Shown here in pieces: positions 4,424 to 58,519 of a stretch of DNA of 64,000 nt. Location: contig CM119266.1 in the NCBI GenBank assembly GCA_051294375.1, positions 16,796,087 through 16,860,086 on the forward strand, read 5' to 3'. The notes under the pieces are model-generated. The model saw only the letters and a list, made by a program, of their open reading frames with translations. It was not told the origin of the DNA and searched no databases. This DNA comes from Paraspadella gotoi (taxonomy: Eukaryota > Animalia > Chaetognatha). Position 1 is the stretch's first letter. Each line of letters begins with the position of its first letter. A program made the position numbers and the translations under genes.

Positions 4424-5743
4424 ATGAGTCGGCGACCTCGCCGCAGAGAGGACAAGACGACCTCCCAAGACTCCGTCGAGTTGGTAAGTCAAGAGTTAAG
4501 ACAAAAGTCCGAACATCTTCTCAAAGCGGATTCGAAAAAAACTCTGCCAATCGATAATTTTTTGAAGCGGACGACAACGTTCTTGATTGCGCTTTGAGTC
4601 AAAATATATAAGTATACATTTAAAAATTATAATTACATTTATAACGATCGTTTTAAAATGAAAAGAAAACACATAGATATAGACTATACATAGTTAATAA
4701 ATTTTAAAAGTAAATAAAAAATATCAGAGTATAAATTTACAAGGTTCATGGATGTTTTCTCTAAATTTCTGTATTTTTCGACGAATATCACACAAACTCG
4801 CCAAAAAAAAACAAAAAACAAAAAACAAAAACAACGTTCCTGTTCAGTTGTTCAATATAAATATTTTTTAACAGACGGCTATGCATTCCAAAGACGCGAT
4901 TTACGAAAACAACAACCCCAACCAAGACGACCGTGTCTCCATCGACGAGTATGAGGACCACGTCAATGAACCCACCTACATCAACGTGAACACTTTAAAA
5001 GGCCGACCGACGAAACGCCGCAGCCACGGATCATCCAGCGGACGGTTTTGATTGGTCGCCAAAGAATCATTCAAGATTCGAAGAGTCGGACTGGCCGGAC
5101 GAGACGCCGCCGCCAACGCCCTCTAACACTAACGTCTATCTCACGACGCTGCCAAAGAACGTACGTCGAGACGGCCGCAGCGGCGGCGAAAGCAGCGGCG
5201 GAGCGACGCCGGAAAAACTCGGAGTCGCTGATGATTCTATAGAACTTGAAAAAGAATTGCTTAAACGCCGGTTTCGTGTTAGACGAATCTAGAGTGAGTT
5301 TTGTTTTGGATTTATTTTTTTGAGATTGCGATTTAAACATAACTAAAGCTACATTTTTATATGCAAATTATCTTCTTTACAAGCTCCAACACACCCTCGC
5401 CAGCGCCAGCTCTCCCATTCTTCCTCTTCCGCCCAAGCCCCGACGATGGAACCGTCGCCTCCTTCTCATCCTCATCCTCCTCGCGTTTTTGATTCCCACG
5501 ATTCTCGCGGCGACGGCGCTCAACATCGCGTTGACGACGTCATCGGAATCTAAGGACACGGGTCCATGTCGCTCGGGGGCGTTGAGACTCAGACGCAACG
5601 TGACGCTGTCCACGGCGTCCACGGTGACGACGACGTCTTCAACGTCGACGAATGGAACTTCGATGGAACCGACGACCGAAGTCAACACCTCCGCTTCGTC
5701 GATCTTCGGAGGCGACGATTCCTTTCCGACGAAAGAACTTTGA
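4424..5743 (+). CDS. Small type II single-pass membrane protein: Tyr/Pro-motif cytoplasmic N-terminus, short glycosylated ectodomain
   Basis: Exons 4424-4483 (MSRRPRRREDKTTSQDSVEL, donor GTAAGT), 4875-5293 and 5384-5743 join in phase 0 if two extra A's in homopolymers (~5000 and ~5264) are treated as errors. The protein has YEN, YED and YIN motifs, LPLPPKP, the TM segment LLLILILLAFLIPTILAATALNIAL, then RLRR and NVT/NGT/NTS sequons. Confidence 0.65.
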
Positions 5744-6101
5744 TCGGGTTGAAGCCTCGATTCGAAAAGACGCCCAACTTTTGCGCTTGTCCCTGTTCGA
5801 CGGAATAGAAAAATCATGTCACGTGATCGAGGATCTCGTGAACGCCGCTTGTCAACTCGGCCCCGTTGAATTTGGCGTCGTGAAAGCGACGGAGACGCAA
5901 ATCGTGGTGACGACGCCGCCCTTGGCAGGTCGACTATTATCGCCTGGACAATTTGTTCCTTTTCGTAAAAATATACATGTGAAGAGACAGTGATAATTGT
6001 TATGTGTTTGTGACAGAACCGTTCAATGTAAGGTGAGCTTCGGATCAGGCTGTAACACCGTGTTACAGGCGGGTTAAGCGCCCCGTCCCTCTTAACTGCT
6101 A

Positions 6102-6174
6102 GACGGCCACCGGGCTAGAACCCCGGACCTTTGGGTTGGGAGGCGAATGACTTGCCTCCGGCACCAATGGCCGC
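6102..6174 (-). ncRNA. Second copy of the tRNA-like sequence, in the 3' LTR
   Basis: Same sequence with a few changes. The T-arm CCGGG/CCCGG pairs perfectly in this copy. Confidence 0.6.
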
Positions 6175-6521
6175 TGATGAACGGTTGGTGGATTTTAGTC
6201 CTCCATACATCCCCCCCTTCCGTAGGGAGAAGTCTGTTGCGTCTCTTCAGTGAATTGTTGTTGTTGGTGGAAATGCGTCACCAAGTTGAGGCATGTCGCC
6301 TGATATGTTGTGGGCGGAAAGTGCATCGCCAGGTTGAGGCATGTCGCCTGAAAGTGTTGTTGTTGCTGTTGTGTTCGGAAGTCGGGCTCACCAATGAAGA
6401 GACAGTGATAATTTTTATGTGTTAGTGACAGAACCGTTCAATGTAAGCAATTCCTGAGCTTCGGATCAGGCTGTAACACCGTGTTACAGGCGGGTTAAGC
6501 GCCTGTCCCTCTTAACTGCAA

Positions 6522-6593
6522 GGCGGCCACCGGGCTAGAACCTCGGACCTTCGGGTTGGGAGGCGAATGACTTGCCTCCGCACCAATGGCCGC
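6522..6593 (-). ncRNA. tRNA-Gly(CCC)-like sequence in the 5' LTR (tRNA-derived, probably not a functional tRNA)
   Basis: GCGGCCATTGGTGCGGAGGCAAGTCATTCGCCTCCCAACCCGAAGGTCCGAGGTTCTAGCCCGGTGGCCGCC is 72 nt, with a perfect 7-bp acceptor stem GCGGCCA/TGGCCGC, an A-box-like TGGTGCGGAGG, a loop CTCCCAA and a B-box-like GGTTCTAGCCC. Confidence 0.65.
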
Positions 6594-7264
6594 TGATGAA
6601 CGGTTGGTGGATTTTAGTCCACCATACATGCATATTAATTGAAAAAAAAGTCTAACAAAGTTTAACTTAATGCTACATAAAAACGAAGGGTTCGTTCAAT
6701 GGAGAAGAATCATAGCTCTCGTTATTGTGTAGTGATAAACTAGTGATAAACTACCCTTCTGTTTTTTTTAATTTTTTTTTATTTTAGTGTTAGGTAGCGT
6801 TAAGGTAAAACCTTTCTTCTTGACACTTAATGCTTGAATGAGAGAGGGCAGCGTTCTGTGAAAATAGGGCTGAAAATGGTCATCTAATCCGTTTATGAGG
6901 GGAAATGCGCCAATTACGTAATTCGTATATCGTATTCAGTACTATATTTACAAGATCCGATCAAGTTTTTTTTTTTCTCGTTGATGGTTGTTCATTGATT
7001 GTTATTATTATATACATTGGGATAATAATTAAAGTGTTTTATAAAAATAACTTTTTTTTTTCTTCAAACCAAAATCGATCACCTCCTTCATAAATTTTCA
7101 ATTGATTGTCTTTAAAAATATTTTACTGAAATTTCATTGATAGATCGAATTGCAATACATGCACAAAGTTTTTTGTATTGGATTTGAGTGCTAAACTAAA
7201 GCATTTTTACATTCTTTTAAATAAAATCGATTCATAATACAACTTTCTATTCTTCAAAAAAATT

Positions 7265-16299: not shown

Positions 16300-58519
<42,220 letters not shown>

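Follow-up and report, generated by a model that had tools for sequence, protein, structure and literature searches.

The window, a stretch of 64,000 nucleotides analysed as a whole, contains a number of probable or possible host exons, several repeat blocks and, on its minus strand, a short mobile element. A probable host coding exon lies at 5324-5965 on the plus strand and encodes a transmembrane-like stretch and a Ser/Thr-rich stalk. A GT follows it at 5965, its three one-base gaps are filled by contigs of three sequencing runs, and two of its pieces gave no Pfam match. Judged from this exon edge, the element likely sits about 15 nt into a host intron, in antisense orientation. A multiple-EGF-repeat exon at 57347-58519 on the plus strand is WIF1/teneurin-like (best hit 47%), and its eight protein hits are mostly animal-named, with identities of at most 47%. 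Domain matches also mark laminin G exons at 42.6-43.2 kb and TSP1 exons at 37.9 and 52.7 kb, and the EGF, laminin G and TSP1 exons possibly belong to one extracellular-matrix gene. Exons of these three kinds mark the host as an animal, one with few relatives in the protein collections. The laminin G exon had no homologue in the protein collections searched, and none was found for a 540-aa ORF. A 557-codon open frame at 54067-55740 on the minus strand, featuring a Cys-rich part and repeats of a helical-looking unit, matched no Pfam family, no homologue and no Atlas entry. Segmental repeats of 1.6-4.3 kb, with 83-90% identity, lie at 18.5-22.5, 28.9-33.1 and 36.1-39.6 kb and at 8.4-10.0 and 12.2-13.8 kb; they are partly inverted, and the larger ones are close to TSP1-like exon pieces. 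Units of about 43 bp are arrayed in tandem over approximately 47.0-51.1 kb, with many one-base indels of the sort typical of long-read error.

The mobile element is genuine, comprises 647 bases without a gene, carries a tRNA-like sequence in each of its long terminal repeats (LTRs) and occupies many genomic sites. Read on the minus strand, a 5' LTR of 232 bp (6395..6626) and a 3' LTR of 228 bp (5980..6207) enclose a non-coding interior of 187 bp (6208..6394), in which a 48-bp unit is repeated 2.1 times at 6259-6360. Contigs come loose at 6626 and 6395 for the 5' LTR and at 6207 and 5980 for the 3' LTR. The LTR pair is about 96% identical, with 217 of 226 aligned bases shared, nine substitutions and eight gap columns (219/228 when the bounds proposed earlier are used). 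A primer binding site (PBS) of tRNA-Trp type lies at 6381..6393, one base past the CA of the 5' LTR, and a polypurine tract (PPT) sequence lies at 6210..6221, separated from the 3' LTR by a TG dinucleotide at 6208..6209. A direct LTR pair, a total length below about 1 kb, no coding capacity and a PBS and PPT in place are the features of a miniature LTR retrotransposon (TRIM). The sequence-only reading had described this layout on the minus strand, and the PBS and PPT were both found where it had put them. The window holds no second copy of the element, and inspection of the element revealed no self-priming structure.

The 5' boundary was examined with two starts, 6626 and 6628, each combined with target duplications of 4, 5 and 6 bp. 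Only one of these six tests gave a match, namely a perfect 4-bp duplication with the start at 6626, which reads CATG at 6627..6630 on the 5' side and is paired with CATG at 5976..5979 on the 3' side; start 6628 gave none at 4, 5 or 6 bp. Contigs are likewise clipped at 6626. Because the duplication and the contig junctions both set the 5' end at 6626, the element is 647 bp long, has TA...CA ends and contains an interior of 187 bp. It had previously been placed at 5980..6628, with TG...CA termini and an interior of 185 bp. The 3' end at 5980 holds, whereas the 5' end, the termini and the interior length are corrected here, the apparent TG at 6627-6628 being the end of the CATG target duplication. 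The proposed search for a duplication of 4-6 bp was thus successful at the studied copy. Annotation that relies on TG...CA ends would miss or misplace such an element, as the first reading did. The TG at 6208..6209 lies outside the integrated LTR and is missing from most genomic junctions listed for the public contigs; it was likely trimmed off by integrase.

We compared contigs of public sequencing runs (X1, X5 and X9) with the element and used the best-supported rows of one pass. At the 5' end, X1 contigs departed at 6626 (n=109), at the equivalent LTR position 6207 (n=55) and at 6627 (n=33), and there were no departures at 6628 among the best six X1 rows listed, the smallest of which had n=21. 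Among the rows listed for the other runs, X5 gave 13 departures at 6626 and 2 at 6628, and X9 gave 18 at 6626. Departures at the 3' end, again among the rows listed, fell at 6395 (n=133 in X1, n=28 in X9) and 5980 (n=28 in X1). The loose flanks were mixed at both termini and represent different genomic sites, because they agree with one another at merely 0.42-0.46. The element belongs to a dispersed family with fixed ends, and the expectation of dispersed copies was confirmed by more than 100 mixed-flank junctions at each end in X1. The junctions of the studied locus itself are present at both ends in X1 and X5 and at one end in X9. The majority flank letters beside both element ends are ATAT in the contigs; the 4-bp duplication was observed in the studied copy, and the flanks of the other copies are known singly and unpaired.

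Summed contig depth over the interior exceeded that over the flank by about 2,300-6,100x in X1, 60-180x in X5 and 1,400-1,700x in X9, which is more than 50-fold in all three runs that cover both. Summed contig depth is no copy number, and we read it only as a family size of hundreds to thousands. The X1 junction counts of more than 100 per end provide a firmer floor on the number of copies, to which alleles of pooled animals may have added. Given the 4% divergence between its LTRs, the studied copy is not brand new. In each of the three runs the LTR had more than twice the summed depth of the interior (about 3-7x in X1, about 9x in X9 and about 30x in X5), a hint of solo LTRs or of LTRs with other interiors; depth of this kind does not measure copy number, though, and no solo LTR was seen whole. 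One 255-nt contig of X5, with a depth of 300 (flanks 9-20), fuses 6608 at the LTR start to 6141-6167 of the tRNA-like part and to 6236-6382 of the interior. The PBS and all other parts of the LTR are missing from it, and it seems to be a deleted derivative that has itself been amplified. No cluster of loose ends was seen at the boundaries of the tRNA-like segment among the best 18 rows listed for the three runs. A run with another organism label (X10) gave one 151-nt contig of depth 5, which we did not count as evidence of a second host, and the LTR-PBS junction had no exact match in metagenome contigs. Decay by CpG methylation was considered as the source of many G>A and C>T variants and was rejected, since only 6 of the 16 listed sites are CpG and the window shows no CpG depletion (o/e 1.35).

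The tRNA-like segment occupies 72 nt of the 5' LTR (6522..6593) and 73 nt of the 3' LTR (6102..6174), both on the minus strand. Ahead of it lies a stretch of 33 nt (6594..6626, minus strand), which is predicted to fold into a short hairpin and would serve as U3; behind it lies a folded tail of 127 nt, and the 5' LTR as a whole folds strongly (z -4.15). Within the segment the 7-bp acceptor stem is intact, the D and anticodon stems are broken and the T loop is one base short, and the minimum-energy fold differs from a cloverleaf. A degenerate A-box-like sequence at 6575..6585 (minus strand) matches three of the five letters of TRGCY and has the YGG. The B-box-like motif at 6533..6542 (minus strand) contains the GGTTC core at 6538-6542 (6118-6122 in the 3' LTR) and departs from the B-box consensus in one place, where the consensus has a purine and the element has T. 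Both boxes are kept at tRNA spacing in both LTRs, and the stricter form of a combined A and B box pattern matched twice in the window, only in the two LTRs. No variant falls within 6107-6201 among the best 40 of 187 rows, which is a weak observation.

Standard searches for tRNA were negative: ARAGORN at default settings found no tRNA genes, and Rfam gave no tRNA match over 5 kb (E 1), in the 5' LTR (E 10) or in the 3' segment (E 10). Relaxed ARAGORN settings produced a cloverleaf at 6522-6593 whose score, 92.3, heads the 33 obtained in the window; the second copy, in the 3' LTR, scored 88.1, within the background range of the window. Dinucleotide shuffles of the whole LTR reached these scores in 3/2000 cases for the 5' copy and 13/2000 for the 3' copy, and shuffles of the segment alone in 0/2000 and 2/2000, respectively. 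We then compared the window with a set of 158 distinct phage tRNAs (71-78 nt, score at least 105), which were assembled from 138 viral loci by means of a generic T-loop pattern. With an HMM of these tRNAs, no place in the 64 kb other than the two LTR segments exceeded the threshold; the 5' copy had 12.8 bits (E 0.006), the 3' copy 12.7 bits (E 0.007) and the next match 3.4 bits. We also built a covariance model from 90 of these tRNAs, with up to six per type. It ranked the LTR segments first and second in the 64 kb, at 19.8 bits (E 0.004) for the 3' copy and 13.5 bits (E 0.22) for the 5' copy, with rough E-values and the next match at 10.5 bits. Covariance-model support for a tRNA origin, as asked for earlier, came from our own model and not from the Rfam tRNA model.

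These scores, together with the intact acceptor stem, the broken D and anticodon stems and the short T loop, indicate that the LTR segment is a decayed tRNA and not a working one. Two patterns derived from the element, both chosen after the fact, retrieved mainly tRNA genes: one had 77 of 124 matches inside called tRNA genes, all Met, and the other 106 of 115 (70 Val, 29 Ile and 7 others). Neither pattern retrieved a Gly tRNA from the collection searched, in which animal tRNAs are sparse. A blastn search with the segment against phages returned 18 records, all with E 3 or worse and none of them a tRNA. The triplet CCC stands at the anticodon position and makes a Gly parent possible. The sequence-only reading had proposed a full-length tRNA-Gly(CCC)-like cassette of 72 nt with A and B boxes in each LTR. 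The tRNA origin, the acceptor stem and the box-like motifs stand; the segment is degenerate, and the Gly label is tentative, CCC being simply the triplet at the anticodon position. Copies of such elements can inflate tRNA pseudogene calls.

We consider it quite probable that this is a dispersed, non-coding TRIM in which the decayed tRNA segment of each LTR likely acts as an internal Pol III promoter, and which is likely copied in trans by an autonomous Gypsy element. The cycle that we propose is inferred from what is established for LTR retrotransposons and for Pol III. TFIIIC would occupy the internal boxes, with Pol III initiating near 6593 and reading the LTR tail, PBS, interior, PPT and 3' LTR. 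Since the sense strand of the element has no T4 run, transcription would continue to the first T-run of the flanking DNA, which in the studied copy is a T5 at 5967..5971 (minus strand), nine bases past the end and a candidate Pol III stop, to give an RNA of about 625 nt. The lack of T4 is compatible with read-through and is not proof of it; as a selected feature it was rejected, because 56% of shuffles also have no T4. The 3' end of a host tRNA-Trp would prime at the PBS, and the resulting strong-stop DNA of about 200 nt would jump to the equal sequence of the 3' LTR, which would also supply the 33-nt U3 again. Plus-strand synthesis would be primed by the PPT, beginning at the TG, and the integrase of the helper would trim two bases per end to leave TA...CA and insert the product in AT-rich 4-bp targets, mostly ATAT. 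With the promoter 33 nt from the LTR start and no internal T4, the model makes a sharp prediction, an uncapped RNA of about 625 nt. None of the runs recorded as RNA contains the stretch; X9, whose RNA nature is no more than a guess and which continues unspliced from the exon into the element, was left out of the expression evidence. A Gypsy helper is pointed to by the 4-bp duplication together with a putative PBS for the 3' end of a tRNA. The PBS shares 12 of 13 letters, and the same one-base spacer, with the Trp PBS of Gypsy-32_NVi and Helenus-2_SyJa (Kojima Fig. S2), and has one mismatch to the honey-bee tRNA-Trp given in PMC10886601, a bee tRNA that may not equal that of the host.

The same TRIM, with the same tRNA ancestry, might be transcribed by Pol II or by read-through from the host, the segment being either a dead passenger from an old SINE insertion or a packaging structure. 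Such a role would accord with the degenerate A box, the non-consensus B box and the sub-threshold tRNA scores in default ARAGORN and Rfam, with the strong folding of the whole LTR (z -4.15) into pairings unlike a cloverleaf, and with the likely intronic position of the studied copy. The sense strand of the element, however, has no TATA or AATAAA-type motif, the tRNA-like segment is preceded by only 33 nt, and both boxes have been kept at tRNA spacing in both LTRs; the lack of variants at 6107-6201 among the best 40 of 187 rows counts weakly in the same direction. We regard such transcription, with the segment as passenger or packaging structure, as unlikely, though it is the main rival reading. 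It is far less credible that the resemblance to tRNA is due to chance and reflects a GC-rich cluster of hairpins within the LTR of an ordinary TRIM. Chance would explain the negative Rfam and default ARAGORN results and the broken D and anticodon stems, but would have to produce sequence-only HMM E-values of 0.006 and 0.007 and a lead of 9 bits over the next match, 19.8 bits in the covariance model, ARAGORN scores that local shuffles reach in 0 and 2 of 2000 cases, and matches of element-derived patterns, post hoc as these are, of which 106/115 and 77/124 lie inside called tRNAs.

The nature of the primer was also considered. Over its last 10 letters the PBS is exactly complementary to a stretch of the Met(CAT) anticodon arm, and in fungal Helenus elements the primer is such an arm, from an initiator-type tRNA-Met that has been cut (PMC10886601), a Copia-style half-molecule that would imply a Copia helper here. 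The matching Met(CAT) tRNAs come from prokaryotic-virus contigs, though, and the PBS opens with TGG one base past the LTR, the layout expected for a 3'-CCA end. The duplication is also 4 bp here as against 5 bp in Copia-linked Helenus (PMC10886601), and we attach very little probability to priming of this kind.

TRIMs with a tRNA-derived segment are known as Helenus (TRIMp3) and have been recorded in six animal phyla as well as in fungi and a plant, while Ajax is a 5S-derived group from nemerteans (Kojima 2024, Biology 13:119, PMC10886601). The sequence-only reading had the two names swapped, taking Helenus as a 5S type and Ajax as a tRNA type from oomycetes. In a 2026 meeting report (PMC12859917) the known cases are still Helenus and Ajax. 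Most Helenus families have an A box with TRGCY and YGG, the core of the B box is GGTTC, and animal Helenus elements have 4-bp duplications and PBS types common with Gypsy elements; Pol III transcripts have been shown for Cassandra alone, and there is no Pol III experiment for any Helenus (PMC10886601). The element studied here has a tRNA-derived segment in each LTR, the GGTTC core and a 4-bp duplication. It is of the Helenus type: the kind was known, the example is new.

Comparison with animal Helenus elements shows a TRIM within their size range (647 bp here, 311-1263 bp in animals), with a tRNA-like LTR segment, GGTTC, a putative PBS for a tRNA 3' end, a PPT, a 4-bp duplication, a non-functional tRNA fold and a high copy number. 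In contrast to these, 33 nt separate the tRNA part from the 5' end of the LTR, a tail of 127 nt follows it, and the A box fits only three of the five letters of TRGCY. Judged by eye, a T4 stands behind the B box in 22 of 25 LTR entries in part 7 of the supplement, but not here. By eye, a 5'-placed tRNA part also occurs in two cynipid-wasp families and a ctenophore family, and the layout is not unique; the T-run behind the tRNA part is also missing in the fish Helenus families examined by eye. TA...CA ends are likewise seen in five wasp Helenus LTRs (Kojima 2024 supplement, by eye) and are described in PMC9804982 for 548 lotus Copia copies. None of the animal Helenus entries in the supplement was alike in ends or interior when viewed by eye. 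A short-sequence search of the supplement gave no match for five of six terms and five occurrences of the sixth, of which the two viewed were fungal and internal, and a literature search made without a host name found no description of the family. Judged by eye against the listed families, the element probably represents a separate, undescribed family, and this family probably had a separate origin within Helenus. The earlier suggestion of an undescribed metazoan family is thus likely to hold at the level of the family, tRNA-bearing LTRs of animals having already been described (PMC10886601). A bolder reading, which we put forward only tentatively and think doubtful as a whole, is an independent Helenus lineage outside the six recorded phyla, with a terminator-free Pol III unit at the LTR start, a whole RNA made by read-through, a nearly whole LTR serving as R and hundreds to thousands of copies. 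If true, it would offer an unusually clean system for tRNA-type Pol III promoters that drive LTR retrotransposition.

The cynipid-wasp elements Helenus-2_SyJa and Helenus-2_SyUm share with the studied element a Trp-type PBS (12/13), an LTR whose 5' half contains the tRNA part and a long structured tail, but have 277-bp TG...CA LTRs, an interior of 485-487 bp and no evident sequence likeness. By eye, the wasp tails contain a hammerhead-like core, which is absent from the studied element. If this core is real, the two wasp elements combine a tRNA-type promoter with a retrozyme-like ribozyme; hammerheads appear in the main text of PMC10886601 only within a reference title. Rfam gave no hammerhead match in the studied element, and a core followed by stem II and GAAA is absent from both of its strands, so that it was rejected as a retrozyme. 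Fish Helenus elements related to LTR-11_DR (e.g. Helenus-1_ChCh) resemble it by eye in the middle of the tRNA-like segment, including CCC at the anticodon, but differ in their His-type PBS, 43-48-bp interior and other LTR ends, and in having the tRNA part within the 3' half. Like it, Cassandra and Ajax are TRIMs with a Pol III-type promoter in the LTR. Their promoter, in contrast, is derived from 5S rRNA, they occur in plants and nemerteans, and the Ajax duplication is 5 bp. Identity with either was rejected, since Rfam scans of the element gave no 5S match and the segment scores as tRNA; a 12-nt word that the element shares with both Ajax LTRs, found by eye, was dismissed as being at chance level. 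Finally, tRNA-derived SINEs (SINE2) also join a tRNA-derived head with A and B boxes to an unrelated tail, whereas the studied element has two LTRs, a PBS, a PPT, fixed ends and a 4-bp duplication, and no poly-A or simple-repeat tail. The known kinds of mobile elements are unchanged by this finding, which adds a high-copy family to a class defined only in 2024, by computation alone.
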